Positions 1-52,012 are shown, counted from the stretch's first letter. The stretch is 64,000 bases of DNA from Blastocystis sp. Blastoise (GCA_039096225.1 JBBPEB010000024.1:248001-312000), one strand, 5' to 3'. The notes: generated from the letters alone by a model not told the origin. Translations and numbers: made by a program.

Positions 1-39
1 AGGGGATAAACTGGCAGAAAGACTATCAGGAATTTCCAT
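1..39 (-). CDS. 5' end of PLV hypothetical protein (MEIPDSLSASLSP...), counterpart of 45799-46326; truncated by window edge
   Basis: Reverse complement of 45799-45837. Confidence 0.8.
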   Translation of the reverse strand, partial: MEIPDSLSASLSP

Positions 40-308
40 GATTATTTAAACCTTCAAAAGTATTTTTATACAATATATTAAATATACTATTTTTAGTGTA
101 CAGTTCTTCATTTCAGTTGCTAACAAAAGCCTATTGCTTCCAGCTGGAAAATAAGCCAATAAAATAGCTTATTTCGTATGACAAGTCGTCGTCATCGTCT
201 AATTGTGTTTTACTAATTTTTTTATCCAATCAGATTACAGATGCCGACTATACTCGTCATCGAAACACAAATAAAAAATGCTAAGTCGACAAAATTAGCC
301 AATCAAAT

Positions 309-326
309 GAACCTTCTAGAACATTC
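309..326. promoter_or_regulatory. Heat-shock-element-like array (4 alternating GAA/TTC units) in a divergent promoter with CCAAT boxes
   Basis: GAAccTTCtaGAAcaTTC; CCAAT at about 156, 226 and 299. Confidence 0.6.
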
Positions 327-437
327 CATAGAGATTCTACACTGTCTCCTAGAATATTTAATATTCCATTTAAATGTATTATTTATTTCATTTTGATAAA
401 TACAAATTTTCTCTCTGTAACGATATTCGCGATTATA

Positions 438-1061
438 ATGCAATTTAATCTTTCTGCTGATTCCCGTAAATGTCTTCAAACTGTTCGTATGGAACTTCTA
501 AAGAATTCTAAGAAGGCTGTTGAAGTTCATAAGAATGTTCTTCGTGATATTGATTTACATCAGTCTCAATTGAATAGAGAAAAGAATCTATTGGGTATTG
601 CAAAATCTAAAGAACGTCTTGCTTCTTTCGAAGTCGAAAACTATAGATCAGCTTTAAAACGTATAAACGCGGTTATTAAAGGTCTTGAAGATTATGAAGA
701 ATTCGCTGCTGATATTTATACTCAACAACTTAATGAAGAACAAGATATTCAAGATATTATCAATACTGAAGATCTTTTAGAAAGTGATAGAACTACTATT
801 TTATGTTCTGAAGATTCTAAAGAACATTCGAATTCTCAAGATGATGATTTTGATATTATGAAATTCCATATGGAAGATGGATTCCTCTATGATGAAAAAG
901 GTAAAGTTTATTCTTATGAAGTTGTTCATGCTAAGAGTATTAACAAGATTAAAAGAGATCCTTCAAAACAAATGTATTTCTGGGATGGTATTTTATATGA
1001 TAAGAATGGATGGCCTCATTCATGTACATATATTAATAGTCAAGAACCAATTGAAATTTAA
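438..1061 (+). CDS. PLV hypothetical coiled-coil protein (ATG start MQFNLS)
   Basis: Open in both copies with only 2 aa differences; first ATG at 438; TGTTTTGTT motif downstream. Confidence 0.8.
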   Translation: MQFNLSADSRKCLQTVRMELLKNSKKAVEVHKNVLRDIDLHQSQLNREKNLLGIAKSKERLASFEVENYRSALKRINAVIKGLEDYEEFAADIYTQQLNEEQDIQDIINTEDLLESDRTTILCSEDSKEHSNSQDDDFDIMKFHMEDGFLYDEKGKVYSYEVVHAKSINKIKRDPSKQMYFWDGILYDKNGWPHSCTYINSQEPIEI

Positions 1062-1170
1062 TTATTTTTCTTGTTTATTTTTCTATTTTTACTTATAAAC
1101 TTGTAAAAAATCATTGAAAATTGTTTTGTTTATTGTATATACATTTAAAACACTAAAGTATAAAAAGGAT

Positions 1171-1320
1171 GTTCTAGAAGGTTCTAGAAGGTTCTAGAAT
1201 GTTCTCGAAGGTTCTAGAACATTTAAAAATATAAAGTAATATTTACTATTATAGAATGTTCTAGAAGGTTCTAGAAGGTTCTTGAATGTTCTAGAAGCTT
1301 CCAAAACTGACTTCTAGAAT
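1171..1320. promoter_or_regulatory. Two long HSE-like arrays (10 pentamers each, 1171-1220 and 1254-1301) upstream of the primase-helicase
   Basis: (nTTCnnGAAn)x5 with variation confined to the n positions (TA/TC/TT). Confidence 0.75.
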
Positions 1321-1387
1321 CTTTAATATATTATTTGTTTTAAATGTTGTATTATAATTATTTTCATTATTTATAAGTCAAATAATC

Positions 1388-4390: not shown

Positions 4391-4434
4391 ATTTATATTT
4401 ATTTTTTACTATAAAGAGTTGTTTTGTTTTAAAA

Positions 4435-6231
4435 TTAATAAAATTTAAATTGTATTCCATGAAAATGTTTTTTAGGGACTTTGACTTTAAAGAATGCATT
4501 ACTTTTATGTTTTTTCAATAAACCATGACCACGATGAATAGGTTCTAAAGGAGGCATAGTAGAAAGACTACGTAATGCATAAGTATCTGAATTATTCATA
4601 ACTATAGGTGTAGAATTTTCATCTTGAGTATTCTGTTGCATAAGAGATGCTTGTGTATTCGTTAATTCTGAATCCGTTGTATTATTATGTAAATGATCAG
4701 GTAATAATTGTTTATTACGTATAAAACGATTATAACGATCTCTAGAATTCTCTGGAACTTCTTCAGATTCTAATGAACATCCTACAGGTAATTCAGTTTC
4801 TAAATCGTTTTTATCTGGATAATGATGCTTTAATAGATCTTTATAATATCTTAATGTAATCATTATAGTATCATTATCTGATGAATATTGTTCTAATGTA
4901 GATAATATCGATTCTGATTTCATATTGAAATTCTCTTTACCAAATACATCTTCATAGTCTTCATCATATTGTTCTATACGATCATTAAATCGTTTACATA
5001 AAAATAATAATTTATTCAATTGATTAATTTCTCTTGTATAAGTAATATTATTCATATCAATATGAAATATTCTTGTTTTATTATCTAAATCTTGTAATTT
5101 AGTTGAATGAGAAGATAAATAAGGAGATATATAATTTTCCATATGTGTTGATTGACTATGTAACATCTTCATAATCGAATTTTCAAAGAGTTCTACACCT
5201 TTAGATTCATGTTCTGAATCATTATGTTGGAATTGTGCTTCTCTTGATAATCTATAATAATATTGAGCAAATAAATGTCTTATAATATCACAACCATTAA
5301 TTAAAGAATTATTCTGTTGTGTTTTATAAATCCATCCTAAATGAGGTTTTATATATTCATCACCAAATTTCAAATCACGTACTTTACCACCATTCTCAGT
5401 AACAAATAAATAATGTCTTGGAAATAAACGTAAGGATCTAGCTAAGACATTTAAATATTCTTCTGATAAATACTGATAAGTAGGATATTCATTCTTACCA
5501 ATTTCAAATCGATTCTTTGTATCATTCACATGAATAGTCAAAGTATTTAAATCAATATAATTGGTTGTTCTTCTTAACGATAAAGGAATTTGTTGACCAC
5601 GAGTATAGATTACACAATCATTATAATCATTACGAGCACATAATGTATCATAAGTTAAAACTAATAAATAACTATTCACATAATATAAATCATTAGGATT
5701 CTCTAAATAATTCTTTTTGGTGATATTAATGATTTCTCCCCAATCAGCTTCACAATTAATAATTTTCTGAGTGATTTCATAATGTCTTGAATAAGTAGCA
5801 TCAATTTGTAAAGAACCCCATAAATGTTCCCATTTCTTTATATTTTGTGGAGTAAATGCTTTATAATTAATGATATCTTCATCATCTGTACAAATAGATA
5901 TATTCTTCATTATATAAGTAATCATTTGCATATAATTAGCTACAGTAGTATTGGATAATCCACCTTGTTGTCCAGGAGCTTCTGTTTGTGTATGTTGCAT
6001 AACATTTTGAAATTGAAATGGATCTGTTAACACTTCTACACAAAAGAATGGTTCTTCCATATCATCTATTTGAATTCGTTCTTCATTACGAAATTTCTTA
6101 CATATTGTCTTTATCCATTTCTTCCAATTTATACTTGTTGATAATTGTATTTTCTTCCAATGTAATAATTGATCTATACAATTTGTAAAGAATTCTTCAC
6201 AATCTTTATCTGAATAACCTGTTGATTGCAT
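4435..6231 (-). CDS. Tyrosine recombinase-family protein 1 (598 aa)
   Basis: ARND(R)...NDTKN(K)...YLF...IIRH(R)...MLHSQSTHMENY(H,Y); motif order matches 50079-51014. Confidence 0.75.
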   Translation of the reverse strand: MQSTGYSDKDCEEFFTNCIDQLLHWKKIQLSTSINWKKWIKTICKKFRNEERIQIDDMEEPFFCVEVLTDPFQFQNVMQHTQTEAPGQQGGLSNTTVANYMQMITYIMKNISICTDDEDIINYKAFTPQNIKKWEHLWGSLQIDATYSRHYEITQKIINCEADWGEIINITKKNYLENPNDLYYVNSYLLVLTYDTLCARNDYNDCVIYTRGQQIPLSLRRTTNYIDLNTLTIHVNDTKNRFEIGKNEYPTYQYLSEEYLNVLARSLRLFPRHYLFVTENGGKVRDLKFGDEYIKPHLGWIYKTQQNNSLINGCDIIRHLFAQYYYRLSREAQFQHNDSEHESKGVELFENSIMKMLHSQSTHMENYISPYLSSHSTKLQDLDNKTRIFHIDMNNITYTREINQLNKLLFLCKRFNDRIEQYDEDYEDVFGKENFNMKSESILSTLEQYSSDNDTIMITLRYYKDLLKHHYPDKNDLETELPVGCSLESEEVPENSRDRYNRFIRNKQLLPDHLHNNTTDSELTNTQASLMQQNTQDENSTPIVMNNSDTYALRSLSTMPPLEPIHRGHGLLKKHKSNAFFKVKVPKKHFHGIQFKFY

Positions 6232-6298
6232 TATTAAAAATTAAATTATTTATAAACAAAACAAATTTATTATTAATATTTTATAACATTTCATAGAA

Positions 6299-6721
6299 TT
6301 ATAAATGAAGAGATTGAACAATAGAATCAACACTTATATTTAATTTCATTAATTGAACAGCTAATTCTTGTATTGATTCATTTTGATTCGAATCAATTTC
6401 TTCTAATTCATTCAAGACTTCTGATATATGTTTGACTTCTTCTTCAATAATAGTTTGTTGTATTTTCATTGTCTTATAATAGACTTTCTTTGTTTGTGGA
6501 TTACAACAATTACAATGAATATCTATATTTTTAACAATTAATTGAAAGAATTCAGTTGATTTTTCAAATAAACATTTTATAGCTTTTATAATAAATTCTA
6601 ATAAAGTATTTTTCTTTTCTATTTCTTCTTCGGATAATGTGGTTGTTGTTGAACTATCTGAACTTGTTGAACTTGTACTTGATAAAGAATGTAAGGATTC
6701 AGATACAGATTTAGGCTCCAT
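6299..6721 (-). CDS. PLV hypothetical protein (Ser/Thr-rich N-terminus, HCNCC, coiled C-terminus)
   Basis: ATG ORF bounded by AT-rich spacers; downstream TGTTTTGTT motif on its strand. Confidence 0.7.
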   Translation of the reverse strand: MEPKSVSESLHSLSSTSSTSSDSSTTTTLSEEEIEKKNTLLEFIIKAIKCLFEKSTEFFQLIVKNIDIHCNCCNPQTKKVYYKTMKIQQTIIEEEVKHISEVLNELEEIDSNQNESIQELAVQLMKLNISVDSIVQSLHL

Positions 6722-6790
6722 TTTTTAATAATTTTTAAATGAATAATATAACAAAACATTTTTTAATTTAAATGAAATGAATTAAAATAT

Positions 6791-9277
6791 TTATATATAA
6801 GAGATAGTTAATAAAACAACACAAGGATAATCACATGTTATAAAGAACATATTATCATGAGGTAATAACTTTAATAATTTACGATTACAATAATAGACAT
6901 TCTTATTGATCTTATTTGATATACCTTCATATTTAATACCATTAGAATAGTAATAAGGTAGATTTGTAGTATCTATAACATGAATATTATTCTCATATTC
7001 ATTAGTAAAGCATCTTAATGAAATAGGATATAAGTAATCAGTGGATTGACCATACACTGATATAATTTGTATATTCGTTAAGTATTGATATCCATAGACA
7101 TTGGTTTTCTTCAATTCATAAATTAAATTCTTACTCGTACTAAAATCACAATATACTTCATCATAAGCTTTGAAACGTATATCACTACCATTCGGTTCAC
7201 ATATATTACAAATTATATTTCCTTTGAATAATTCATCAAATCTTAAATCTATATGATGATCAATTGTAATTGGAGAATTTATATTACTATAAGTAACATA
7301 TTTATCAGATAAAGGAAAACTAAATGTAGGATAATAAGATCCATTTATATATCCAGTACATAATTTAGATGCATTTGCTTGGATTGTATCTGTATCATTT
7401 TGAATAATAATATCTTTCAAGATCTTATTTTGAATATTCAATGTAGGATATTCAGCATAGAACTGTGTGTCTGATGTTTGACAATTCAAACATAATTTCT
7501 TAATGGTTTCACTTGGTTGAATCGTATCGACTGTATCTGAGAATTCTAAGAATCCTCTTAAAATACAATTATTATTGAAATTCACATATTGTTTATTTTT
7601 ATCAGTATATCGTATAATAATATCTTGAATAGTATTTAAATAAGGAGACACATTAATATTCATAATATCATGAAATTCATTATTGCCTTTATAATTATTC
7701 ACATTAAATGAATATAAAGAATTCTGACTATTATCTACTATATTCGATTGAGCTATTAACATTCCTTTTGGACGACTACTATCAATATTATGAACACCAT
7801 AATTAATAATTTCATCATAACCTAATTTATTATAACCTAAGATTTCACCTAATTCTTGAGCTTGAGAAAAATCTATATGATAACTATCAGTATAACACTT
7901 ATAATTACCATCTAAATCTAATGTATTCAAATCAACAGGTATACCTGATAATAATTGTTTACCATAAGATACATGCCAAGCAAAACATCCTTGTTCATCA
8001 TAAACCAGATCAGGTCGTATATTATGTAGAGCACCACGATACTTAAATAATGAATGTTCTATATCTGTGGCTGTAAATGTCCATGAACTTGAATTATAAT
8101 CGTTGTACGTTATTAAATACAAAATATAACCCTCTTTATCACCGTGAGTTTCTACATCTTTTGATATAGTTAAATTACATACCTCAATAGATCCATTGAT
8201 CGTATTTTCTAATAAATCATAGAATTCTTGTTCAGTATATTCTCCTGGAGGCATTGTGTATGTAGTTTCCATTCGACCACCCATTCCACTTATTTGTCGA
8301 ATAATCATTGTATTATATCCATCTTCAACTCTAATGTATGTTTTGATATTAAATATATTATCATCTTTAACTGGATTCTTAATTCTTTGTAAAACAATTT
8401 CTGGTTTATTTTCAGTGTATATTAGTGTTTCATTACCGTCAAATAAACCAGTAAATAAACTATTTTCCATTTTCAGAATCATATTTATATTTGGAGAAGT
8501 TACATCTGGAAAATAAAAATCATGTTCTGCATTAGTTACACATTCAATTGTTCCATCACTACTTTGTGTAGGAATATCATGAATGAACTTACTAAATACA
8601 CCGCTATTTGCATATTCTTTTAATGAATAAGTCCCTGTTGTTGTAACAGGAATATTAAAAGAAGTTGTTTTGGGTTTATATATGGTTATAGTATCATCAT
8701 CATATTTCATCATCAGTCGATTACAGTTATCTAACCATACAGAAGATACCAAACAAACAGCGATCCACCAAAATTCTATATCTGTATACGTTCCTTTTGG
8801 GAAATTAAAACCACGTCTTGTTTTAGCAATATGAAATTCACAATAGAAATCATCTGTATTTATTGTGACTGTTGGAATCTTAATATATTGAATAGTAGGA
8901 TCAATATCAGGAGATTCTTTTATTACTGGTCTATCACATATATCAAAATGACATAGTTCTAATAATTGTGGAATGGAATAATTTTTCTGATCTAAAGTGA
9001 TTGTATATACGGAACTATTACCATTGACACGAGTATTTATATATTTGAATATTTGTGTTTTTGTGAAAGTATCAAATAGAGGCACACTTTCACTACCAAT
9101 TAAATTAAGATCAATATAAGAAATGATATTTTTAGTGATATCAATAGAATTCGATAAATGTATATTGAATTGATTATCAATACAACGAACATCAATAGGG
9201 ACTACATGTGTTTTAATACGAGTATCCTTCTCTTCTAATGAAGTCTGTTCTTCTTGATTATCTTCATCAAGTTCCAT
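6791..9277 (-). CDS. Large minor-capsid/penton-like protein with repeated insertion domains
   Basis: Repeated PxGxY motifs (FPKGTY, MPPGEY), LGEILGY, and IQDIIIRYTDKNKQYVNF, paralleling 12330-12995. Confidence 0.6.
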   Translation of the reverse strand: MELDEDNQEEQTSLEEKDTRIKTHVVPIDVRCIDNQFNIHLSNSIDITKNIISYIDLNLIGSESVPLFDTFTKTQIFKYINTRVNGNSSVYTITLDQKNYSIPQLLELCHFDICDRPVIKESPDIDPTIQYIKIPTVTINTDDFYCEFHIAKTRRGFNFPKGTYTDIEFWWIAVCLVSSVWLDNCNRLMMKYDDDTITIYKPKTTSFNIPVTTTGTYSLKEYANSGVFSKFIHDIPTQSSDGTIECVTNAEHDFYFPDVTSPNINMILKMENSLFTGLFDGNETLIYTENKPEIVLQRIKNPVKDDNIFNIKTYIRVEDGYNTMIIRQISGMGGRMETTYTMPPGEYTEQEFYDLLENTINGSIEVCNLTISKDVETHGDKEGYILYLITYNDYNSSSWTFTATDIEHSLFKYRGALHNIRPDLVYDEQGCFAWHVSYGKQLLSGIPVDLNTLDLDGNYKCYTDSYHIDFSQAQELGEILGYNKLGYDEIINYGVHNIDSSRPKGMLIAQSNIVDNSQNSLYSFNVNNYKGNNEFHDIMNINVSPYLNTIQDIIIRYTDKNKQYVNFNNNCILRGFLEFSDTVDTIQPSETIKKLCLNCQTSDTQFYAEYPTLNIQNKILKDIIIQNDTDTIQANASKLCTGYINGSYYPTFSFPLSDKYVTYSNINSPITIDHHIDLRFDELFKGNIICNICEPNGSDIRFKAYDEVYCDFSTSKNLIYELKKTNVYGYQYLTNIQIISVYGQSTDYLYPISLRCFTNEYENNIHVIDTTNLPYYYSNGIKYEGISNKINKNVYYCNRKLLKLLPHDNMFFITCDYPCVVLLTISYI

Positions 9278-9372
9278 ATTTTTCTAATTTATTAAATAAT
9301 AATTTATATTAATTTATAAAAATTATTTAATTTTATTTATTTATTAATATTTTATTTAAAATAAAAAGAAAT

Positions 9373-12239: not shown

Positions 12240-12329
12240 TTTAATTATCTAATATTTTCTTTTATCAATTTATACAATTTAATAAATATTGTTTTGTTTA
12301 TCAATACATAATTAATTTATTTAATAAAA

Positions 12330-12995
12330 ATGACATCAATATCTCATCTAAGTAAAATTACAAGTCAAATCTGTCATGAACAATTCAATTATACTTTGGA
12401 TTTAGTAGGTAAAAATATAACTCATATCAATACATTAGTGAATACAAGTGATATCATTAATATTCCATCTTTCAGAATAACTGAAAATAATGCAACAGCA
12501 CATACATTTCCAGCTGGTAACTATTCATTGGAAGAATTCTTTGAGAAATTAATTGAACTTGGTAAAGATATGACAATATCTGTATCTGGACAAACGAGTG
12601 CATTCTATTATGATAAAGAAACAAAAACATTTGGTACGTATAGTGGATTCAGAAAAAGTCTTAGTAATAAAGAATTCTTTTATTATTTAGGATTAGATGA
12701 TGAATACTTTAATACACCAATTACTTACAGTGATGAATATATATCTAATAATATTTCATGGTATAAGATCTATATGTTACGTGTGTATTGTGATATTATT
12801 AATAAAGATAATGATTTGATTTCTATTCCTTTATATGCTAAACAAGGATTTGATAATACATTTGCTTTAAGTGATTTATCTATTCCATGTATTGATGGTA
12901 AATATACAGATATCCAATGGGAAGTATATGATCAATTAAATAATCCAATTGATTTATCAAATACAAATCTTTATATATACTTTACTGCATCTTAA
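12330..12995 (+). CDS. Minor capsid protein (penton, single jelly-roll)
   Basis: FPAGNYS...YLGLD...LRVYCDII...IQWEVYDQLNNPIDL, a pattern typical of Polinton/PLV pentons. Confidence 0.75.
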   Translation: MTSISHLSKITSQICHEQFNYTLDLVGKNITHINTLVNTSDIINIPSFRITENNATAHTFPAGNYSLEEFFEKLIELGKDMTISVSGQTSAFYYDKETKTFGTYSGFRKSLSNKEFFYYLGLDDEYFNTPITYSDEYISNNISWYKIYMLRVYCDIINKDNDLISIPLYAKQGFDNTFALSDLSIPCIDGKYTDIQWEVYDQLNNPIDLSNTNLYIYFTAS

Positions 12996-13063: not shown

Positions 13064-14101
13064 ATGGTGAATAAAATAAATCCATTAAAAGAAACACGTA
13101 AAGGATGCGGAGTCTTAGAATTTAAATATGGAAAATCACATCATAAAACATATGAATCAAAATTCATATTGATTATTGCAAGAACATTCTCAGGAAAATC
13201 TTTCTTAACTGTGAATCTCTTATGTTCTATGGATCTTAAAAATAAATATAAACAAGTCACAGTAATTTGTCCTGATGCATCCAATAAGAATGAATGTTAT
13301 ACATCCTTTCAAGATATTTGTGAACATGCTGGAATTGATTATAAATGGTATGATTCTGTAGATGATAAATTTAAAAAGATTAAAACTGTTGATGAATTAG
13401 TCAATACATATAAATTACCAGAACATAATTTTATTGTATTGGATGATATCTATCCATTATCTAGACAAACCAAACAACTGATTGTATCTATATTATCTAA
13501 AGGTCGTCATTATAAACAGAATGCTATTATATGTCTTCAAAGTCATACAGATGTTACCAATCAATCTATATTAAGTCAAGTATCTCATTTCTTTATTAAT
13601 AGTCAAATCTTAAAACGTGATCCTGGATTCTTACCAGATAAATTAAAGATTATGCCATCAAATCTAAATGAAATTCTTACAGATGAAGAATTAATGAATG
13701 ATCCACATCAATTCTTTATGTTAAAACAAGGTAGTGATGATTTAACAATATGGACTAATCCTGATTGTGGTAGTAAACAGAATGTATATAAGATGGTAAA
13801 GAAAAGGAAATGGACAGAAGAAGATAGTGAAAAAGAGAAACGAGAAGAACAAGGTGAAGTATCAGGTAGTGGTATTAAACGTCCTAATGAACATATATCT
13901 ACATATGAAAAGAAAATGAAGAAGTTTTTACCTGTTGAAGAAGAAGTCTCATTGAAAGGTATTGAACGAGATGAAAAAGATAAACCTAAAGAATCCATCT
14001 TACAAATCATACAAGATCAAATCATACAAGATAGTCAACGACGCATTTTCAATCCTTATTTAAATAAAAAACATTATTCTGGTTATCCTTCTTTTCATTA
14101 A
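13064..14101 (+). CDS. A32/FtsK-HerA-type genome packaging ATPase
   Basis: Walker A ARTFSGKS, Walker B FIVLDD, KGRHY...ICLQ motif. Confidence 0.9.
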   Translation: MVNKINPLKETRKGCGVLEFKYGKSHHKTYESKFILIIARTFSGKSFLTVNLLCSMDLKNKYKQVTVICPDASNKNECYTSFQDICEHAGIDYKWYDSVDDKFKKIKTVDELVNTYKLPEHNFIVLDDIYPLSRQTKQLIVSILSKGRHYKQNAIICLQSHTDVTNQSILSQVSHFFINSQILKRDPGFLPDKLKIMPSNLNEILTDEELMNDPHQFFMLKQGSDDLTIWTNPDCGSKQNVYKMVKKRKWTEEDSEKEKREEQGEVSGSGIKRPNEHISTYEKKMKKFLPVEEEVSLKGIERDEKDKPKESILQIIQDQIIQDSQRRIFNPYLNKKHYSGYPSFH

Positions 14102-14154: not shown

Positions 14155-15192
14155 ATGAGTTCAATTACAAAAAGATATTTAAAACAAAATTGTGATCCAC
14201 GATTATTTGGAGGATCACCACCAAAATCAAATAGACGTGATCTTTATCATAAACGTTATGTAAGATATGGAGGAACTGGTTTTGAAGAAATTGTTAGACA
14301 ACAAGCTAAAGATGCTGATTGGGCTGATTTTAAAAATGGTGTCTATACTGCATTACCTATTTTAGGTACATTAGGAGCATTTGCTGGATATAATTATTAT
14401 CAGAAACGTAAAGAACAAAAACGTCAAGAAAAAGCAAAAGAAGAAAAGAAAAGACAATTTGAAGAACATATTGAAGATGCTAATAGAGATGATGAATTAT
14501 ATAATGATGATGCTACTTATCAACCAAAGAGAATAACAAGAAAAATGATGGCTGATGATGATAAAGATTATAATAATGCAAATCTTGAAGATGAAAATTA
14601 TGATGATATATTTGGTCAAGGTATACATAGAAGGCATCAAAAACATCGTAAAGAACATGGGAGTCACCGAGAAAAAGAAAAGAAAACAAGTAAATTCGTA
14701 ACTCCTCAAATAAAAATTATTGCTAAGAAGGCTATTCGTTCTAGTAATGTAAAGTCTAATAAGAAGAAATTACAAGATATTAAAGAACGATTACCTAAAA
14801 ATGATGAGCATGTGTCTGTACGTGATATTGTTAATGTCGTTATCGATAAAGAATATCCTATGGATCCAAAACAAAAGCATTCTATTATTGCGAATACTGC
14901 TATTAAAACTATTAAAACGATTGTTCCTATTGTAGTGAATGCATTAAAATACTATTATCCTTCTCTTGGTATCCCTATTGATTTCGCTTATAATATGATT
15001 ACTACTGATGATGATAAGAAACGTAAAGAAACTGCTGATAACTACTTTAAAAATCCTAGTGGAAGTGGTGTTACAAAAGAGAATGCTGAACGTTGTGGTG
15101 GTGCTCTTGTCAACTCTACATCCTTTGATACTACTACTAATTTAATTATTAATCTTGTTCAATTCTTCTTAAAAAAATTTCATTTAAATTAA
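14155..15192 (+). CDS. PLV hypothetical basic protein with a short hydrophobic segment; candidate core/virion protein
   Basis: LPILGTLGAFAG segment; GG and GxG motifs; Lys/Arg-rich. Confidence 0.7.
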   Translation: MSSITKRYLKQNCDPRLFGGSPPKSNRRDLYHKRYVRYGGTGFEEIVRQQAKDADWADFKNGVYTALPILGTLGAFAGYNYYQKRKEQKRQEKAKEEKKRQFEEHIEDANRDDELYNDDATYQPKRITRKMMADDDKDYNNANLEDENYDDIFGQGIHRRHQKHRKEHGSHREKEKKTSKFVTPQIKIIAKKAIRSSNVKSNKKKLQDIKERLPKNDEHVSVRDIVNVVIDKEYPMDPKQKHSIIANTAIKTIKTIVPIVVNALKYYYPSLGIPIDFAYNMITTDDDKKRKETADNYFKNPSGSGVTKENAERCGGALVNSTSFDTTTNLIINLVQFFLKKFHLN

Positions 15193-15268
15193 TTATTTTA
15201 ACTTTTATTATTTCATAATTAATTATTTGTTTTGTTATATAATTATTTTTAAATTAATACAATAAATA

Positions 15269-16066
15269 ATGCAAAGTAATTTAGGAGATAGTGTAACTCT
15301 CTATGATATTTTATCAAGAAATCAGAAAAAACAATCTTGGGATCCATGGTTACCCAATTCATATATTTGTCAAGATGAACAACCTGTACAACCATTAGCA
15401 CATGATCCTAATGCACAAGGATCTATGTATAGTTCAATGGCAGTTCAAGCATTAAGAAATCATGGTCAATCACCTGAAGATATGTTTATAGCTACTATGA
15501 ATTCAGCTAAAGCTAATGGTGATACAAATAGATATACATCCATGTTATCTCAATGGCAAACGAATTATGGTATTCCTACTACAAGTAAGATATGGTATGA
15601 TGCTAGTAATCCTAATAACTATCAATATGAAAAACTTATTCACACTGTAAGAAATCCTAATGAAGACTATACAGTGAAACCACAACCAGAATCCATGAAT
15701 TCTAATTTCACTGAAGAACAACCCAAACCAGAACCTGAAAAGAAACCTGAACACGAAAAGAAACCAGCTAAAGAACCTGAAACTAAACCTGAAACTGAAA
15801 AGAAACCATCTAAAGAAGATGATAATACTCCAAAGAAATTTGAATTCGATATGAATTTACAACAAGATACCGACGAAAAAACATATTATAACGCCACTTA
15901 TGGAAAGTATAAATTCAAATGGTATACTGATGGATCTATTGAATGCACCAATAGTGAAGATTTCGGAAATAATAATATATTCTACAAAAATAAAACATTA
16001 TTTGTTGAAACTGATGATAAATCAATGGATATTGACGATTATTTAAAAAATACTCATAATAATTAA
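15269..16066 (+). CDS. PLV hypothetical protein with KPE repeats
   Basis: 265-aa ATG ORF in the co-oriented cluster. Confidence 0.75.
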   Translation: MQSNLGDSVTLYDILSRNQKKQSWDPWLPNSYICQDEQPVQPLAHDPNAQGSMYSSMAVQALRNHGQSPEDMFIATMNSAKANGDTNRYTSMLSQWQTNYGIPTTSKIWYDASNPNNYQYEKLIHTVRNPNEDYTVKPQPESMNSNFTEEQPKPEPEKKPEHEKKPAKEPETKPETEKKPSKEDDNTPKKFEFDMNLQQDTDEKTYYNATYGKYKFKWYTDGSIECTNSEDFGNNNIFYKNKTLFVETDDKSMDIDDYLKNTHNN

Positions 16067-16154
16067 TGATACTATTAATATACTAACTATATAATATAAA
16101 TAATTTCTTTTTTTTGTTTTGTTTTAAAATTCATAATTATTTTATTAAACTAAA

Positions 16155-17639
16155 ATGATACAAAGTGCTCGTTTAAATGTTTCAAATAAAGGATTAGTAG
16201 GCGTAAATCATCGTGCTACTGGTCATGAATATCGAAATTATATTGTTCCAGGATCTATTCCTGATGGAGAAGAACGTTATCCAATTAATTATTCTATTGC
16301 TCCAAATTCATTATATGCTGTTAAGAAAATTGAAAGTAATATGGTCAATAGAGCAACATCCAATCCATTTTTCTCCTATTTATCAGAAACCAGACAAGAT
16401 ATTATACAAAGTTCCTTAGAAGAATCAGAAGAAAGTGAACCAATAGATGAAGGATCTGGGTTATTACCTGATGGTAGAATTCCAAGGAATTTCACAAGAA
16501 AACTCATTTATGCTCATGATTATGTCTTACCTTATATGAAACAAAATCATATGTCTGATTATGCTAAATATTCTAGATTATTAAATCCTCGTACAATTGA
16601 TAGTGCAATTGATTTTACTAGAAGAGATCGTGATGGTTATTTATATTCTAGAGGTGGTAATTTATTTTCTAATATTTATCACACTGTAAGTGATGTATAC
16701 AATGTGTCTGATAAATTAACTGGAGGTATTAATAATATCACTCATGGAATAAGTAATGCTGTTGATTATGGTGCAAATAAATTTAAAGATCTCAAGAATT
16801 GGTGGAGAGATATTAATGTTGATCCAAAAGAAGGATTCAATGATATTAAAGGAAAACTTGTAAGTGATAGAAATAATTTATATGATAATTGGAAATTAAC
16901 TGATGATAATGAAGCTAAGAAAAAGAATAAATTATTAGCTGATAACTATTTTAGATTTGCTCATATGTCAGGTAATGATACTAAAGAACAAAGACTTAAC
17001 AAAACTAAATCTTTAGAAGATCAAGCAAAAACATTTCATAAAAATTATATTCCCTATGCAGAAAACCCTACATTTGTTAATAAAGTTGTTAATACTGTAA
17101 CAAATGTAGGAACACCAATTGTTAATGGTGTTAAAAAAGTTGCAAACTCTATTGTTAGTGGTACAAAGAACGTATTTAATAGTTTTTCTGATTGGTGGTA
17201 TGGTAAAAATCCAGATGAAGAAATACCACAAACAGAAAATCCAATAGAAACAAATAATAATGTTATACCAACTTCTTCATCTACTCCTGATACTCTAACA
17301 CAAGAAAATATTCATAATATTACTATAGAAGATTCAAATCCTCCAAATTTAATTCCTCTTATGAATGATCCTACTGTTCCTTTACCTGACACTGTTCCAA
17401 TGTCTCAAGCAATAACGAATAAATTCACTCCAAATATTACACCTGTAGCCCCTATTTCTAATCCAGTAGAAAATGTCACTCTTGAAAATAAAAGAAATAA
17501 AAAAGAAGATGATGAATTTCAATCATTTGATGAAGATGATGGTGAGGTATTTTATGATCTAGAAGAAGGTAATGGATTACGTAGAAAAAGACGTATTTCA
17601 AAAAATAAAAAATTAAGAAATAAACGTAGAAAACATTAG
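16155..17639 (+). CDS. PLV hypothetical protein; amphipathic repeats and very basic C-terminal tail
   Basis: 494-aa ORF; EGSGLL, SRGGNLF, EGNGLRRKRR... Confidence 0.8.
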   Translation: MIQSARLNVSNKGLVGVNHRATGHEYRNYIVPGSIPDGEERYPINYSIAPNSLYAVKKIESNMVNRATSNPFFSYLSETRQDIIQSSLEESEESEPIDEGSGLLPDGRIPRNFTRKLIYAHDYVLPYMKQNHMSDYAKYSRLLNPRTIDSAIDFTRRDRDGYLYSRGGNLFSNIYHTVSDVYNVSDKLTGGINNITHGISNAVDYGANKFKDLKNWWRDINVDPKEGFNDIKGKLVSDRNNLYDNWKLTDDNEAKKKNKLLADNYFRFAHMSGNDTKEQRLNKTKSLEDQAKTFHKNYIPYAENPTFVNKVVNTVTNVGTPIVNGVKKVANSIVSGTKNVFNSFSDWWYGKNPDEEIPQTENPIETNNNVIPTSSSTPDTLTQENIHNITIEDSNPPNLIPLMNDPTVPLPDTVPMSQAITNKFTPNITPVAPISNPVENVTLENKRNKKEDDEFQSFDEDDGEVFYDLEEGNGLRRKRRISKNKKLRNKRRKH

Positions 17640-17711: not shown

Positions 17712-17882
17712 TTAAAAATCAATAAAATTCTTGATATAATCTTCATATTCATCATCTTCACTTACAGTATGAAAACTGTCCATATCAGAATCACTATCAC
17801 TTAATTCATCAACTTCAAAATTTCCATAAGGTTTCCAAGTACCTTCTTTATAATCTGGAGCAAATTGCTTTGGAGAATCCAT
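17712..17882 (-). CDS. Small acidic PLV protein (56 aa, MDSPKQF...)
   Basis: ATG at 17882, directly downstream of the HSE array at the TIR inner edge. Confidence 0.5.
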   Translation of the reverse strand: MDSPKQFAPDYKEGTWKPYGNFEVDELSDSDSDMDSFHTVSEDDEYEDYIKNFIDF

Positions 17883-17928: not shown

Positions 17929-18828
17929 TTCTAGAAGTTTCGAGAATGTTCTAGAATGTTCTAGAAAATTGATATACATCCCGCCACCTAAAATCACTGG
18001 AACACAATTAGTTTCCCCAGTTTCCCCAATATAATTGTGTTTTTGTGTTCCAAAATCCCTCATTTTTACATTTTTAAGCAATTTGATTGGACAATTCACG
18101 ATGACGCATCCTATTTCCATAACGGTTACCCTTGTTTCCAAAAGTCTCTCGTTATAATCGTGGTGGTGGGTACATCTTTTTACAAGACCACACCACCACC
18201 AGCTTTTCTTTCACCCACTATAAATACATACCTTGATCACTTTACTCTTTTTTATAAATTTTTTTATGATTATCATGACTTTTTATATTATTTATTGATC
18301 ACTATACATACATTTTTATTTTTATATATTCCCGTGATTATTCTTATTATTTCTTTTTAGATAGAACCATCCATTTCATCTTTTCTCTATATAAAGGGAG
18401 GGTCGGGGTGTGTGTTTATTTAGCACATTCTGTGCTTCTTTTCGTATTTCTTTCTGTATTCCCGTGATTATTTTACTCACTTTACCAACGATGGAGTCAT
18501 TTTCCATGAATATTCCCTGTAAAGGGGAGGGTGTGAGTGTGTATTTTATTTCTTTTATGATTACTATGAGTTTCTCCTTGATCACTTTACGTTTCACGTT
18601 GGAATCGGAACACAAATAAATTAAAAATAAATAAACATGGGAAAAAATAAATACACACACACACTACCCTACACTCCCATGGTTATTTTACTTCAGAAAT
18701 GTTATTAATTCTTCCGTCGAGAACAAAAAGGGGGGATGTCTTCCCCGCTTATGGCTGCGCGCGTCGCGCAGACTCTATGCGGGGTTTGCATACCCCCTTC
18801 TGCAGTTCGAAGAACGGAAGAATTAATA
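17929..18828. repeat. PLV terminal repeat (~900 bp): HSE array at the inner end (17929-17966), GC-rich hairpin at the outer end (18703-18828)
   Basis: Near-identical to 51113-52012. Copy 2 is inverted, so the match implies inverted termini in the full element. Confidence 0.85.
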
Positions 18829-46413: not shown

Positions 46414-46521
46414 AGAATTCTTGAATGGTCTAATGGATCTATTAAAGAAATATGTAACCACAGTATCATGGTTCGATTCCGTTAAAATGTTTCCATTAGA
46501 TTATTCAAGTGTTCTTTTTTT
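46414..46521 (+). ncRNA. Candidate RNA polymerase III small RNA (~105 nt; VA/vault-RNA-like architecture)
   Basis: A-box TGGTCTAATGG (46426-46436), B-box GGTTCGATTCC (46470-46480), T7 terminator (46515-46521); the 5' and 3' 24 nt pair at 23/24 positions. Confidence 0.7.
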
Positions 46522-46567
46522 CTAGAACCTTCTAGAACCTTCTAGAACCTTCTCGAACATTCTGGAA
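46520..46567. promoter_or_regulatory. HSE-like array (10 units) upstream of the SSB-like gene
   Basis: TTCtaGAAccTTCtaGAAccTTCtaGAAccTTCtcGAAcaTTCtgGAA. Confidence 0.75.
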
Positions 46568-46644
46568 AATTGATTCATTTGAAAAGAATATCGTAATATA
46601 TTAGTATTAAAATACTTATATTTTTACTAAATACTTAACTAAAA

Positions 46645-47238
46645 ATGTCTACAACTGAATTTAAAAAACCTACTATTCTTGATACTTCTAACTTTAATTT
46701 ACAATGGGATGACACCAAAGAAAATGCTGTTCTTTTAAATAATAATCATCGTGTATGTATTTCTACTGATGCTACACCATGTTTATTTGGTTATATTGTT
46801 ACACGTGATAAATGGACTTTATTAACAATTGAAGATGATAATCAAGTATTCTTAACTGCTTATAAAGAACTTTATCGTAAATTATGTGAATTATGTCCTG
46901 ATGGTGATATTGTTAATTTTGTACGTATGGATAATGGTAAGTATAAGATTACAATTAAAGTACCTATTAATGCATCGAAGAATGTTACTATTGATATTAC
47001 TGATAAAAGAGATAAGAAGATTAATATCGGTAAAGATCCTAAGTTAACTTACGAAGAAATACGTGAAAAGTATATTCCACCAAATACGTTATGTAAAGTA
47101 TTATTTACAATACATGGTATTCATCGTTATAATAACAAGTATTATATTGGTTTATATGCTCGTTCTATTAAAGTCATCGATAAATCTACGAAGAATACTA
47201 ATAGTAATGATACTATTATTGATTTAACTAATTTATAA
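46645..47238 (+). CDS. Putative OB-fold single-stranded DNA-binding protein
   Basis: C-terminal IPPNTLCKVLFTIHGIHRYNNKYYIGLYARSIKV resembles the viral (T7 gp2.5/NCLDV-like) SSB pattern; function inferred. Confidence 0.55.
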   Translation: MSTTEFKKPTILDTSNFNLQWDDTKENAVLLNNNHRVCISTDATPCLFGYIVTRDKWTLLTIEDDNQVFLTAYKELYRKLCELCPDGDIVNFVRMDNGKYKITIKVPINASKNVTIDITDKRDKKINIGKDPKLTYEEIREKYIPPNTLCKVLFTIHGIHRYNNKYYIGLYARSIKVIDKSTKNTNSNDTIIDLTNL

Positions 47239-47313: not shown

Positions 47314-48942
47314 ATGCAAAGTTGTATATTAGGAATGCCAAGTCCTGGTACTTTTGGTATGAATTTAATTTCAACTGGAAAAGAATATAGGCGATATAAT
47401 ACACAACCATTACATAAAATGGATCAATATAATCCAATATTTCATGAAATAGGTCCAAATTCATCTATGCCTGTGTCTACTTTAGAAAGTAAAGAAATAC
47501 ATGATGGTAAAGAAGATGATTATGTAGATCGCTCTAAAACATTTGGTAAAGATGCTGTTCCACAAGGAAATGGTGCTTTAATTCGTGCTAGAGCAGCAGG
47601 TAAAGGTGTAATGAAAGCAGCTGGTCCAGAAGAAGATAAAATAGATGGTGAAGATCGTCAATATAAAGTATTAAATCCATGTAAACCAAGACGTAAATCT
47701 GGTAGAGGAATTATTCCAAATAAATCAGAAATCAATAAATTAGAGAATAATCAAGGTTCTGGTATTGGTGATGCAATTAAAAATAAAGTAAAAAATATGT
47801 ATCAACGAAATGTATTAGATATAAGAGATGCTATTGTAGATAAAAAAGCTAATAGAAAAGCTCGTGATGCATTAGCTATTTTAGCTCAATATGTTGGTGA
47901 CGGTCATCATGATCTTGATGATGAATTCAAAAGATTCTATGAACATAAAATAAAACGTGGTGGAAAAATTCCTATATCTGTTGCTTCAGCAATTATGAAT
48001 GCAATTAAAAATAAGAAAATGATTAAGAATCCAAAATTAAGAAGAATGTTAAGACCTTCAATTATACCAAAATATATAGATTTAGATTCAGCTCAAAGTG
48101 GTGATGGTATATTAAGAGTAAAAAGAGGTGGTGGATTCTGGAGCGGATTAATGGATTATGCACCAGCTCTATTAGGTGTAGTTGATAAAGGTATGGATTC
48201 TTTTGCTAAAGGTAGAAAAGCTTATTATGATACACATTTGGCACAACAATCAAGTGAATTAAATGATATGGAATTTGAAATGGAAAAATTAAAACGTCAA
48301 CAAGCATTAAATGAAATGAAAAAGCAAATAGGTTCAGGAAATACAATAAATAAAATGTTTGAAGGATATTATGATGTAGCTGATGAAATGCAAGATGCTC
48401 TTGATGAAGATGATAGACTACATCCACAACCCGTTGTTCAACCTCCACCACCTCCACAACAACAAGTTGATCGACCTCCTCAATCTCAACCTCCTCAACC
48501 TTATAAACCCATGTCTCGTGATGAACAAAGTTATTATTATAAGATTTATGGTTTCCCTCAAAATGATAAAGAAAAAGTCGATAGAAAATGGAAAGAAGAT
48601 GAAAGGGATAAACGAATAGCTGCAAGAAGAGCTAAACGTAGAGGTTATGGTGGTCGAGTTAAATTAAGTAAAGAAGAATTCTTAGAACGAATGAGAAGAG
48701 GAAAAGAAGCTAAAAAGAAAAGAGGTGGTGATTTGAATCCATTAGTATCATTTTATACAGATTTTATAATACCTGCAGGAGTGGCACGAAAAAAACGTAA
48801 AATACAAGAGGCTGATTTAAAACAATTACAAATTATAAAACAGAAAAGAGATAATAATGAAACATTAAATGCAGGTGACGAATTGTTTTGGAAAAAAAAG
48901 AAATATATGTTATCAAAAAACTCAGGGGAGGGGATCTGGTAA
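47314..48942 (+). CDS. Basic, GG/GxG-motif-rich protein; candidate core protein precursor
   Basis: QGNGAL, SGRGII, QGSGIG, KRGGK, SGDGIL, KRGGGFW, KRGGDL, SGEGIW; adjacent to the protease. Confidence 0.75.
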   Translation: MQSCILGMPSPGTFGMNLISTGKEYRRYNTQPLHKMDQYNPIFHEIGPNSSMPVSTLESKEIHDGKEDDYVDRSKTFGKDAVPQGNGALIRARAAGKGVMKAAGPEEDKIDGEDRQYKVLNPCKPRRKSGRGIIPNKSEINKLENNQGSGIGDAIKNKVKNMYQRNVLDIRDAIVDKKANRKARDALAILAQYVGDGHHDLDDEFKRFYEHKIKRGGKIPISVASAIMNAIKNKKMIKNPKLRRMLRPSIIPKYIDLDSAQSGDGILRVKRGGGFWSGLMDYAPALLGVVDKGMDSFAKGRKAYYDTHLAQQSSELNDMEFEMEKLKRQQALNEMKKQIGSGNTINKMFEGYYDVADEMQDALDEDDRLHPQPVVQPPPPPQQQVDRPPQSQPPQPYKPMSRDEQSYYYKIYGFPQNDKEKVDRKWKEDERDKRIAARRAKRRGYGGRVKLSKEEFLERMRRGKEAKKKRGGDLNPLVSFYTDFIIPAGVARKKRKIQEADLKQLQIIKQKRDNNETLNAGDELFWKKKKYMLSKNSGEGIW

Positions 48943-49508
48943 AGAGTAAAGATGAGAAATTAATTCAAAATTCAATGAATTGCGATAATCCTATTATATC
49001 TGATAAAACTCGTCATGTTACTCCTAGATCCCCTGATAATTTCAAACAAACTCTATCTCAATATTGTAATATACCCAATTCTTTAATATCTCAATTATAT
49101 AATTATGCTTATTTAAATAAACCTACCTCTTCTGTTGCTTGTGATCGTGCTGAAAATGTTATGAAACAATTAAATAAAACGAATTCTCAATCTTATAATT
49201 ATTATAATAGTTATGATGATTTTGAACAAAATATAGATCAAGATCAAACTAAATTTAATATGATCTTTCATGAAAGTCCTAGTGATCCTTATAATGGTCA
49301 TTTTGAAGCTGTTATTTATAATGGTAATAAAAACATAGAACACTATTCATCATTAGGAAATGAACCTACTTTTTCAAAATCATTTATTCAAAATCATAAT
49401 ATTCAATATAATCCTATTCAACACCAAAAAACTACAAGTAATGCAAATGGTTGCTTTTATTATTCTTTACTTTATTTACTTTCTAATGGAAATCTTATGC
49501 CTTGTTAA
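48888..49508 (+). CDS. Adenain-like cysteine maturation protease (divergent); start uncertain (ATG 48975 or frameshift fusion)
   Basis: NGHFEAV...EHYSSLG...QHQKTTSNANGCFYYSLLYL matches the H...(D/E)SxG...Q...C layout, but the acidic residue is atypical. Confidence 0.65.
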   Translation: MEKKEIYVIKKLRGGDLVKSKDEKLIQNSMNCDNPIISDKTRHVTPRSPDNFKQTLSQYCNIPNSLISQLYNYAYLNKPTSSVACDRAENVMKQLNKTNSQSYNYYNSYDDFEQNIDQDQTKFNMIFHESPSDPYNGHFEAVIYNGNKNIEHYSSLGNEPTFSKSFIQNHNIQYNPIQHQKTTSNANGCFYYSLLYLLSNGNLMPC

Positions 49509-49512
49509 AACC

Positions 49513-49535
49513 TTCTAGAATATTCTAGAACATTC
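49513..49535. promoter_or_regulatory. HSE-like array (5 units) upstream of the 124-aa ORF
   Basis: TTCtaGAAtaTTCtaGAAcaTTC. Confidence 0.65.
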
Positions 49536-49630
49536 ATTTTGAACTGGCTCTATTTGTAGAATCTTTAATTTATTATATTAGTGTTTTATATAATTAATTT
49601 GTTTTGTTTAATCATTGGTTAATTTAAATA

Positions 49631-50078: not shown

Positions 50079-51014
50079 TTATTCAATTAATTTTTTAAAT
50101 AAATTATTATTTTCTAAAGATACATAAGAATTAATATGTGTATAATCATTATGACATAAAGCAGAAGCAGAATTTTCTATATCTTGAAATGTATTGGTTG
50201 TAGTTGTAGCATATAATTTTCTTAATGCATTAATGGTCAATTTTGGATGGATTTGTTTTAAATGCTTATTCACAAACCAATCAAATGCTTTAGTAGTAAA
50301 TCCAGTTCGTACAGAAGATTCAAATATAAATTTACGATTTGGATTTCTTTTTAAGAGTAATTCTAGATCTTCAATCAATTCTTTTGGTGCATCTAATTGA
50401 ATTGTAGAGTATTTACCAGCAGTTTTATAATCATTTAATAGAATAGAACCAGTATGTTTCTCTTTATCATAAACAATATAATTCTTATGAATAGCTGGAT
50501 CAATAGTATCTTCTGGTGATAGAATGAATAATTGAGCATAATCAGCACGAGCAGGAGGAAGATAGGAGTAAAAATCTAATATTAATCGTAATGGATTATA
50601 ATTTTCTAATTTATCGTGATATTCATGTAAATATGGAGTCGTAATACCATCTTTAATAAGATCTTGAATTAAAGTACGTTTCTTATTATCCAGATATTTT
50701 TCATACATTGAATTGATAATCACATAAAATTCACACCATTTATTCAAAATACCTTCTTTATTTAATGAAGAAACATTACGTATAATAAATAAAATCAATT
50801 CACATAACGATTTCATTGGACTAATTTTGATTTTACGTTCATTTACCATATAATCCATGAATGAATAAGGATTCTTTAAGAATTCTGAGAACTTTTTAAA
50901 TGGTAATGGGAAAATATATAAATTGAAATAATTAGTTAAACGTTTTTTCCAAATATCAGAATAATTTGAATTCTGTATAACCAAAAGATACTTGTCATAA
51001 TTTGTATTTTTCAT
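50079..51014 (-). CDS. Tyrosine recombinase-family protein 2
   Basis: LPPARADY(R)...NDYKT(K)...FIF...NALRKLYAT(R)...LCHNDYTHINSY(H,Y); first ATG at 51014. Confidence 0.8.
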   Translation of the reverse strand: MKNTNYDKYLLVIQNSNYSDIWKKRLTNYFNLYIFPLPFKKFSEFLKNPYSFMDYMVNERKIKISPMKSLCELILFIIRNVSSLNKEGILNKWCEFYVIINSMYEKYLDNKKRTLIQDLIKDGITTPYLHEYHDKLENYNPLRLILDFYSYLPPARADYAQLFILSPEDTIDPAIHKNYIVYDKEKHTGSILLNDYKTAGKYSTIQLDAPKELIEDLELLLKRNPNRKFIFESSVRTGFTTKAFDWFVNKHLKQIHPKLTINALRKLYATTTTNTFQDIENSASALCHNDYTHINSYVSLENNNLFKKLIE

Positions 51015-51102: not shown

Positions 51103-52012
51103 TTCTAGAATGTTCTAGAAGTTTCGAGAATGTTCTAGAATATTCTAGAAAATTGATATACATCCCGCCACCTAAAACCACTGGAACACAATTAGTTTCC
51201 CCAGTTTCCCTATTATAATTGTGTTTTTGTGTTCCAAAATCCCTCATTTTTACATTTTTAAGCAATTTGATTGGACAATTCACGATGACGCATCCTATTT
51301 CCATAACGGTCACCCTTGTTTCCAAAAGTCTCTCGTTATAATCGTGGTGGTGGGTACATCTTTTTACAAGACCACACCACCACCAGCTTTTCTTTCACCC
51401 ACTATAAATACATACCTTGATCACTTTACTCTTTTTTATATAAATTTTTTATGATTATCATGACTTTTTATATTATTTATTGATCACTATACATACATTT
51501 TTATTTTTATATATTCCCGTGATTATTTTTATTATTTCTTTTTAGATAGAACCATCCATTTCATCTTTTCTCTATATAAAGGGAGGGTCGGGGTGTGTGT
51601 TTATTTAGCACATTCTGTGCTTCTTTTCGTATTTCTTTCTGTATTCCCGTGATTATTTTACTCACTTTACCAACGATGGAGTCATTTCCTATGAATATTC
51701 CCTGTAAAGGGGAGGGTGTGAGTGTGTATTTTATTTCTTTTATGATTACTATGAGTTTCTCCTTGATCACTTTACGTTTCACGTTGGAATCGGAACACAA
51801 ATAAATTAAAAATAAATAAACATGGGAAAAAATAAATACACACACACACTACCCTACACTCCCATGGTTATTTTACTTCAGAAATGTTATTAATTCTTCC
51901 GTCGAGAACAAAAAGGGGGATGACTTCCCCGCTTATGGCTGCGCGCGTTGCGCAGACTCTATGCGGGGTTTGCATACCCCCTTCTGCAGTTCGAAGAACG
52001 GAAGAATTATTA
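51103..52012. repeat. PLV terminal repeat, copy 2, with a 10-unit HSE array (51103-51150) and terminal hairpin (51888-52012)
   Basis: Near-identical to 17929-18828. Confidence 0.85.

Follow-up and report, generated by a model that had tools for sequence, protein, structure and literature searches.

We analyzed a 64,000-nt stretch of the genome of the gut protist Blastocystis sp. Blastoise (the window; positions are counted from its start), and in particular the two tyrosine recombinases (YRs), YR1 and YR2, that are encoded there by a Polinton-like virus (PLV) integrated in the Blastocystis genome in many copies. Coordinates of all features are collected in Table 1. Translation agrees with the preliminary description of both proteins. 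YR1 has 598 amino acids, comprising a core (approximately residues 1-372) and a long extension of 225 residues with a basic tail that ends RGHGLLKKHK...FKFY; its key residues are R200, K239, D315, R318, H358, and Y367. YR2 is a stand-alone recombinase of 311 amino acids with R156, K197, N262, R265, H288, and Y297 at the corresponding places. The catalytic R-K-R-H-Y residues of the tyrosine recombinase superfamily are present in both, and the second histidine (His II) of the HxxR motif is absent from both, the motif reading DIIR in YR1 and NALR in YR2. NCBI proteins 99% identical to YR1 and to YR2 are both filed under Blastocystis sp. Blastoise.

Self-comparison of the window reveals two partial, oppositely oriented copies of one element. 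Copy A (1-18825) contains a 207-residue open reading frame (ORF), a primase-helicase, YR1, ORFs of 140 and 828 residues, two capsid-like paralogs, a packaging ATPase, three more ORFs, and an 898-bp repeat. Copy B (44461-52009) is inverted and shortened, and holds the 898-bp repeat, YR2, ORFs of 124, 177, 542, 197, and 175 residues, and a 1377-bp overlap with the start of copy A. Joined through this overlap, the two partial copies suggest a full element of about 25 kb with terminal inverted repeats (TIRs) of 898 bp, in which YR2 adjoins one TIR and YR1 lies approximately 11 kb inside. A single 52-kb element with the 1377-bp repeats as its TIRs was considered and ruled out; that repeat is the internal overlap of two copies, and the true TIRs are the 898-bp repeats. 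The TIRs and the reconstructed size fall within the range used to define PLVs (15-40 kb), and the packaging ATPase matches the packaging ATPase family (E = 1e-10) at a level that does not resolve the A32 subfamily. Neither a protein-primed DNA polymerase B (pPolB) nor a retroviral integrase was found among the element ORFs using Pfam and PHROGs, which places the element outside Maverick/Polinton sensu stricto.

One viral recombinase family

Sequence comparisons identify YR1 and YR2 as real tyrosine recombinases of one viral family. Profile-profile alignment joins them over 292 columns with a probability of 98.9% and 19% identity, and when the ORFs of the window and of 58 related viral loci are searched with a profile of the YR2 family, YR1 is retrieved at E = 3.9e-11; pairwise BLAST is not significant (E = 0.055). 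The superfamily fold is evident in YR2 from its model (pLDDT 96), which matches XerH (Z 13.0, root-mean-square deviation (rmsd) 4.4, 265 residues aligned), bacterial topoisomerase IB (Z 12.9), XerA (Z 12.6), and Cre (Z 12.2). For YR1 it follows from the profile match to the YR2 family, and the N-terminal core-binding domain of recombinases is also matched, both in structure rows and by profile comparison. The possibility that one of the two genes might lack a recombinase fold, raised in the preliminary description, fails; the YR1 model itself is weak, and its top rows in the VIA structure comparison are Cre and Xer proteins, with topoisomerase IB domains at Z 6-7. YR1 has no match in Pfam or PHROGs.

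The best viral structure match of YR2 in BFVD is an uncharacterized protein of Aureococcus anophagefferens virus (E = 6e-11, TM 0.76), and a Qinghai Lake virophage protein is also among the matches. Family relatives were located at 58 loci on contigs of giant viruses and of small eukaryotic viruses, many of them carrying the label GVMAG. The family is likely that of the OLV11-like YRs of PLVs and giant viruses, OLV11 itself lying outside the comparison. YR2 is 40-42% identical to its four closest clusters, and searches of viral and metagenome contigs returned no close relatives of YR1 or YR2. A quick tree of 63 rows groups the YR1 and YR2 families, and because this grouping has an SH-aLRT of 81 on long branches, we describe duplication within the lineage as a possible origin of the pair. 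Spacing of nine residues from His to Tyr was dropped as a trait derived jointly by YR1 and YR2, the spacing being equal in Cre and XerD (Table 1 of PMC2943603).

Two further YR2-like families, P0200/P0358/P0359 and P0201/P0384/P0412/P0413, appear under the same organism name with 32-40% identity to YR2; one member of each lies three locus tags from the other, perhaps in a second or satellite element. One of the 58 related viral loci (L057) carries two different family members. This 15.8-kb contig encodes two different YRs without His II (4690-5601 and 6436-7410), each present twice in mirror image, as in a fold-back intermediate or an assembly artefact. A second contig, of 26.5 kb (L031/L032), has identical-score matches to the YR family on both strands at mirror positions.

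Absence of the second histidine

The missing His II had been pointed out in both recombinases, with the remark that protelomerases and some viral recombinases share this loss. It proves to be a family trait, because His occupies the position in only one of 150 YR2 relatives (149 plus P0004; P0003, a 99% copy, was excluded) and in none of 45 distinct sequences from viral contigs. The residues found there are T in 75, N in 43, S in 22, D, L, and V in 2 each, and G, Q, C, and H in 1 each. The remaining catalytic positions are kept (Arg I in 149, Lys in 150, Arg II in 150, His III in 146), with Tyr 7-10 residues later in all 150. Among 120 YR1 relatives, mostly from one lineage, R, K, R, H, and Y are retained in 119-120 and Asp stands at the His-II position in 119. 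S, T, N, and D are typical helix-cap residues, and a helix starts at the His-II position in the YR2 model. The S/T/N/D found in 142 of the 150 relatives is likely a helix cap in a topoisomerase-IB-like active site. According to the accessible part of PMC2943603, His II is 87% conserved and not strictly required in Cre, which stays active with Asn in its place but not with Asp; topoisomerase IB lacks a counterpart of this histidine.

Protelomerase identity on the strength of the missing His is not supported, since the loss is family-wide and YR2 is far closer to Xer, Cre, and topoisomerase IB (Z 12-13) than to TelA (Z 7.0, rank 28) or TelK (Z 5.4, rank 43). Protelomerases lie outside the 50 best VIA rows of the low-confidence YR1 model, a result that excludes nothing. 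The loss of His is itself of little import.

Co-occurrence of YR1 and YR2

Within the window, copy A carries YR1 and copy B carries YR2; evidence that the two belong to one element comes from the 1377-bp overlap and from further copies. We compared all 10 members of the YR2 cluster (14 accessions) with the 15 listed of 21 YR1 members (14 accessions). Eleven of the 14 YR2 accessions pair with 11 of the 14 YR1 accessions at a distance of 5-8 accession numbers, and in 8 of these 11 pairs the longest contig is of equal size; one paired YR1 is a 125-residue fragment. Contig sizes, compared by eye, are also shared by metagenome clusters. Eight exact sizes of up to 23,956 bp are common to P0004 (YR2-like) and P0085 (YR1-like), with 15 listed members each, and four are common to P0199/P0382 and P0006 among the members listed, giving shared sizes in two of five metagenomic lineages. 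Many copies of the element carry both genes, and the concern in the preliminary description that the two might never occur together in one element is answered.

Heat-shock elements upstream of YR2 and other genes

A heat-shock element (HSE) consists of three or more alternating nGAAn/nTTCn units upstream of a gene, and such arrays are present in the element. The two element blocks contain ten HSE-like arrays of at least four units, whereas shuffled sequence averages 0.007 and the flanking host DNA tested contains none. The arrays lie 47-112 nt upstream of 6 of 19 element genes, namely those for the 207-residue ORF, primase-helicase, 197-residue ORF, 124-residue ORF, YR2, and 56-residue ORF. 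None of the 13 other genes, which include YR1 and the structural genes, has an array within 250 nt. The earlier statement that only YR2 has an HSE array is therefore correct in relation to YR1, but an array is no peculiarity of YR2. In 28 units identified by periodicity, the TTC/GAA positions are kept at 86-96% and positions 9-10 at 39-46% (majority residue); because TTC/GAA is retained while positions 9-10 vary, a protein-binding site is partly favored over a plain repeat.

The Mimivirus early promoter AAAATTGA abuts three arrays, at 17965, 46566, and 51149. It was ruled out as the driver, being in sense orientation for only 1 of the 19 genes, that of the 197-residue ORF. At the other end of the genes, TGTTTTGTT occurs 16 times in the two element blocks and twice in 31 kb of flank, mostly right after stop codons. 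The Blastocystis polyadenylation motif is given in the available text of PMC4159000 as TGTTTGTT, similar in sequence to TGTTTTGTT, and since most of the element's genes end in this way, transcription by host RNA polymerase II appears probable.

The YR1 extension

The YR1 core is 58-62% identical to those of five other lineages and the extension 25-31%. The last 35 residues of the tail contain 9-15 K/R and no D/E in all six lineages, and a GxG[IL] motif is present in the tail of four of the six. The extension has no usable look-alike in an Atlas search. The HSE-less genes together contain 14 instances of GxG[ILVA], where 2.45 would be expected (P = 3e-7); most of them are in the ATPase and in predicted core proteins of basic character. 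We take this motif to resemble the GX/G sites of adenain. A 21-nt upstream sequence is common to YR1 and the gene for the 542-residue protein, and is found nowhere else in the window.

Terminal palindromes

Each TIR closes with an imperfect palindrome of approximately 120 nt. Its base, a perfect 12-bp stem, stops precisely where the element meets the flanking DNA. The 12-mer of this base is exact only at these four places, and the two arms of each palindrome differ in sequence. Predicted DNA folding energies are -40.7 kcal/mol for copy A and -35.2 kcal/mol for copy B; two control stretches of the TIR gave folding z values of -1.4 and -3.0 (compare Table 1). Both flanks are AT-rich at their start. 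Each end of the element looks like an unfolded, incompletely paired hairpin end. The pattern of this terminal stem was not found in the viral contigs searched. It is on account of these palindromes, and not of the missing His, that end processing by a recombinase is still plausible. Terminal palindromes with hairpin priming have been proposed in virophages and PLVs without pPolB (10.64898/2026.07.28.741278, available part), and for this reason the palindromes may also serve replication without either YR.

Proposed mechanism and alternatives

We tentatively favor a reading in which YR2, expressed early under host heat-shock factor, would excise the element or resolve its ends, and YR1, made late and packaged in the particle, would integrate it. 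This agrees in part with the division of labor suggested in the preliminary description, between a stress-induced YR2 and a packaged integrase YR1. Promoter anatomy and the basic, GxG[ILV]-bearing tail of YR1 argue for the early/late split; the protelomerase lead is given up. Host RNA polymerase II would transcribe the element, and heat-shock factor would switch on YR2, the primase-helicase, and four small genes. YR2 might then cut the AT-rich stem at the junction of element and host, upon which each terminal palindrome could fold back into a hairpin end that primes or closes replication, a step presumably needed because the element has no pPolB. The late genes, YR1 included, would make particles into which YR1 is drawn by its basic tail, possibly with trimming at GxG[ILV]. 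On entry into an unstressed cell the early genes would be off, and packaged YR1 would connect AT-rich host DNA with the hairpin stems, so that each junction retains an unfolded palindrome.

A more ambitious form of this scheme strikes us as unlikely. It would be a lambda-like switch that acts through host heat-shock factor in a helper-independent PLV: under stress, the HSE-led excising or resolving YR and the replicase would be produced, and in unstressed cells a packaged YR with a topoisomerase-like site would integrate a genome with hairpin ends, linking its terminal stems to host DNA. Early genes led by HSEs would, if real, allow host stress to trigger a protist provirus that is independent of a giant-virus helper. 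Integration of PLVs by YRs has so far been deduced from gene content, usually with a circular donor assumed. In the Blastocystis element the two enzymes can be separated, the terminal stem is defined, near-identical copies are numerous, and the host is of a kind that can be cultured. Which enzyme integrates, which one excises, and whether the donor has hairpin ends can therefore be tested directly; relatives at 40-60% identity are present in many public metagenome contigs.

Several observations weigh against the favored reading. YR2, and not YR1, occupies the usual integrase position beside the TIR, as described in the part of PMC11296320 available, and the six particle proteins named for Gezel-14T in the accessible text of 10.1101/2022.07.28.501842 exclude its YR. 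The single GxG[ILV] of YR1 is weak by itself (P = 0.12), lies at non-aligned places between lineages, and is missing in two of six; its absence from the HSE-led genes is uninformative, with 0.27 expected. A plain tandem repeat would also account for the fairly high conservation (82%) of positions 4-5 in the HSE units. The predicted structure of YR1 is of low quality (pLDDT 54). With it, Foldseek returned nothing at E <= 0.001, the first 16 rows all being YRs, and VIA gave Cre at Z 8.7 (rmsd 17.4) and XerD at Z 8.4 (rmsd 4.5, 146 residues aligned). Asp is one of five His-II substitutions inactive in Cre (PMC2943603, in part), so that the Asp of YR1, alone among the key residues, may point to an altered chemistry. 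Among the members listed, no YR2 partner was matched for the YR1 lineages of 621, 628, and 663 residues, the contigs of the 628-residue lineage reaching 23.9 kb. A profile search yielded seven YR2-like clusters at E <= 1e-20, and because this search was word-limited, the clusters partly listed, and the contigs unread, it does not establish that YR2 is absent from the three lineages.

The nearest rival, doubtful in our view but deserving of weight, makes YR2 an ordinary PLV integrase/excisionase and YR1 a late, VLF-1-like resolver of hairpin junctions or concatemers at packaging that stays in the particle as a structural protein. The placement of YR2 beside the TIR and its co-regulation with the primase-helicase correspond to the 'end module' layout (PMC11296320, available part), and baculovirus VLF-1 is a structural virion protein of the YR family (PMC3649998, available part). 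Hairpin-like ends would need a resolvase, and no RuvC-type gene was detected with Pfam or PHROGs. On the other side, YR1 is the more conserved of the two and, in three of six lineages, the sole YR found, as would be expected no less of a core integrase, and an HSE-led integrase would be off in unstressed cells.

It is improbable that YR1 is no longer a recombinase and has become a DNA-binding core protein of the virion or a topoisomerase-IB-like swivel, with YR2 as the only integrase. The inactivity of Asp in Cre (PMC2943603) and the basic tail would suit such a role, as would the R-K-R-H-Y residues, which are those of topoisomerase IB (Z 12-13 against YR2 and 6-7 against YR1). The retention of all five residues in nearly every YR1 relative and the matched core-binding domain speak for a working recombinase, and Asp is also found in two of the 150 other family members.

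Still less probable is module turnover, by which YR2 would belong to a newly gained or exchangeable end module and be redundant with YR1, with no fixed division of labor. PLV end modules do turn over, according to the accessible text of PMC11296320, the same assembly contains additional YR2-like families (P0200, P0201/P0384), the sisterhood of YR1 and YR2 reaches only an SH-aLRT of 81 on long branches, and no YR2 was found in three lineages. Lineages whose residues differ by 40-60% keep both genes intact, which argues against a transient pair. We give equally little credence to a XerC/XerD-like pair acting on an asymmetric terminal stem, which is suggested by the joint conservation of these same-family paralogs in three lineages and by unequal palindrome arms, and contradicted by opposite promoter classes, 19% identity, unequal conservation, and the lack of a detected partner in three lineages.

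Relation to known systems

YRs are well known in PLVs, as are pairs from the YR superfamily in bracoviruses (PMC3649998) and phaeoviruses (PMC13236599); the comparisons below draw on the available parts of the sources cited. The OLV11-like YRs (YREC) of PLVs, virophages, and giant viruses (PMC4642659) resemble YR1 and YR2 as viral eukaryotic YRs, and Aureococcus anophagefferens virus, the source of the top YR2 match, is named there among the carriers. The likeness extends to relatives on giant-virus bins and small viral contigs and to the position near a TIR with a primase-helicase. The Blastocystis element differs in its two diverged paralogs, in the 225-residue extension and basic tail on one of them, and in its HSE arrays. 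Group 2 Maverick-Polinton or Gossevirus-type elements (10.64898/2026.06.19.733378) share a length of approximately 25 kb, TIRs, an ATPase, capsid-like genes, a YR, a predicted cysteine protease, and a primase-helicase replacing pPolB, whereas the Blastocystis element has two capsid-like paralogs and two YRs; this comparison is one of gene content and not of phylogeny. The MELD virus of Blastocystis (PMC8502044) is likewise a midsize dsDNA virus tied to this host with very divergent virion proteins, but encodes PolB and a retroviral-type integrase in place of a primase-helicase and two YRs.

VLF-1 and INT-1 of bracoviruses and nudiviruses (PMC3649998) also constitute several YR-family paralogs in an endogenous eukaryotic DNA virus. 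Both bracovirus proteins are in virions and both are required for proviral excision. The lineage is unrelated, with direct-repeat junctions and circles, and roles tested there are predicted here. Phaeoviruses, as latent endogenous viruses, combine two YR-superfamily enzymes, one for integration and excision and the other for hairpin ends (PMC13236599); the latter, a protelomerase like that of N15, works at an internal telRL-like site, whereas the Blastocystis element has one YR family and terminal imperfect palindromes. The protelomerases TelK, TelA, and ResT share the lack of the box-II His, and the element has hairpin-like ends, but the structural match is weaker than to Xer and Cre, and the element has no perfect telRL-like palindrome. 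Virophages and PLVs of Halocafeteria (10.64898/2026.07.28.741278) have palindromes at TIR ends and replication genes other than pPolB; theirs are 52-nt palindromes accompanied by RVE integrases and target-site duplications, in contrast to imperfect palindromes of approximately 120 nt and two YRs. We found no report of two YR paralogs in one PLV, of HSE arrays in a PLV, or of this Blastocystis element, within a literature whose supplementary catalogues (PMC10120064 and the 2026 PLV preprint) and YR alignment (PMC4642659) may list such elements or the His loss.

Other features of the element and the window

The capsid-like ORFs of 490 and 407 residues are tandem paralogs at 9373-12239. The 177-residue ORF, which we take to be a protease from adenain-like motifs recognized by eye, has no match in Pfam, PDB sequences, or PHROGs.

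Table 1. Features of the two element copies in the 64,000-nt window (aa, amino acids;., no strand)
Feature	Position	Strand	Basis or remark
Overlap joining copy A to inverted copy B; carries 207-aa ORF	1..1377	+	98% identity to 44461-45837
Short HSE, 5' of 207-aa ORF, 4 units	309..328	.	Copy at 45512-45531
Two HSE arrays (10+10 units) upstream of primase-helicase	1172..1303	.	Inverted copies at 44537-44668
Primase-helicase, 1000 aa	1388..4390	+	phrog_1156 DNA primase, E 2e-9, aa 574-749; no Pfam match; N-terminal primase domain by eye
YR1, 598 aa	4435..6231	-	Tyrosine recombinase; core plus extension
GHGL, aa 568-571, GxG[ILV] motif of YR1 tail	4519..4530	-	Predicted viral-protease site or core-protein motif
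828-aa predicted minor capsid or fibre protein	6791..9277	-	Weak match to 221-aa ORF (E 0.007)
Major-capsid-like protein 1, 490 aa	9373..10845	+	Paralog of 407-aa ORF, E 1e-34
Major-capsid-like protein 2, 407 aa	11016..12239	+	Nearest clusters viral (score 0.97); one cluster 10% PF21738 double-jelly-roll (DJR)-like, a lead only
221-aa predicted penton	12330..12995	+	Position and size
Packaging ATPase	13064..14101	+	phrog_2666, E 1e-10; weak Pfam P-loop matches
345-, 265-, and 494-aa ORFs, predicted core proteins	14155..17639	+	Two GxG[ILV] each in 345- and 494-aa proteins
56-aa acidic ORF behind right-TIR HSE array	17712..17882	-	ORF and array position
HSE array, 8 units, inner edge of TIR, upstream of 56-aa ORF	17929..17968	.
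TIR, right end of copy A, 898 bp	17929..18825	.	98.6% identity to 51113-52009
Terminal imperfect palindrome, copy A; predicted unfolded hairpin end	18703..18828	.	z -8.95, 0/200 shuffles
HSE array, 10 units, upstream of 197-aa ORF	46520..46569	.
197-aa HSE-led ORF	46645..47238	+	No family match (Pfam, PHROGs)
542-aa basic protein, six GxG[ILVA] motifs	47314..48942	+	Paralog of 494-aa ORF
177-aa predicted adenain-like cysteine protease	48975..49508	+	H, E, Q, C order by eye
Short HSE, 5 units, upstream of 124-aa ORF	49513..49537	.
YR2, 311 aa, beside TIR	50079..51014	-	Stand-alone tyrosine recombinase
HSE array, 10 alternating TTC/GAA units, 89 nt upstream of YR2, inner TIR edge	51103..51152	.
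TIR, YR2 end of inverted copy B	51113..52009	.	Self-comparison
Terminal palindrome, copy B	51891..52009	.	z -7.21, 0/200 shuffles

The window also contains other mobile elements. An element at 18829-25571, which starts 3 nt past the PLV terminus, encodes a 1730-residue reverse transcriptase of the type lacking long terminal repeats (non-LTR) at 19347-24539 (Pfam RVT_1) and has flanking inverted repeats of 473 bp composed of 29-bp units; such long inverted ends are unusual for a reverse transcriptase element. Copy B is cut at 44460 by a sequence ending CCACCAGTG, found also at 44029 (region 44029-44460), which we assume to be comparable to a CACTG-type DNA transposon end. An intact-looking Helitron Rep-helicase ORF of 1497 residues (Pfam) lies at 28729-33222. 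A Tc1/mariner-like element occupies 52393-54061, with DDE_3 at 53538-53873 and related ends at 61421-61700.

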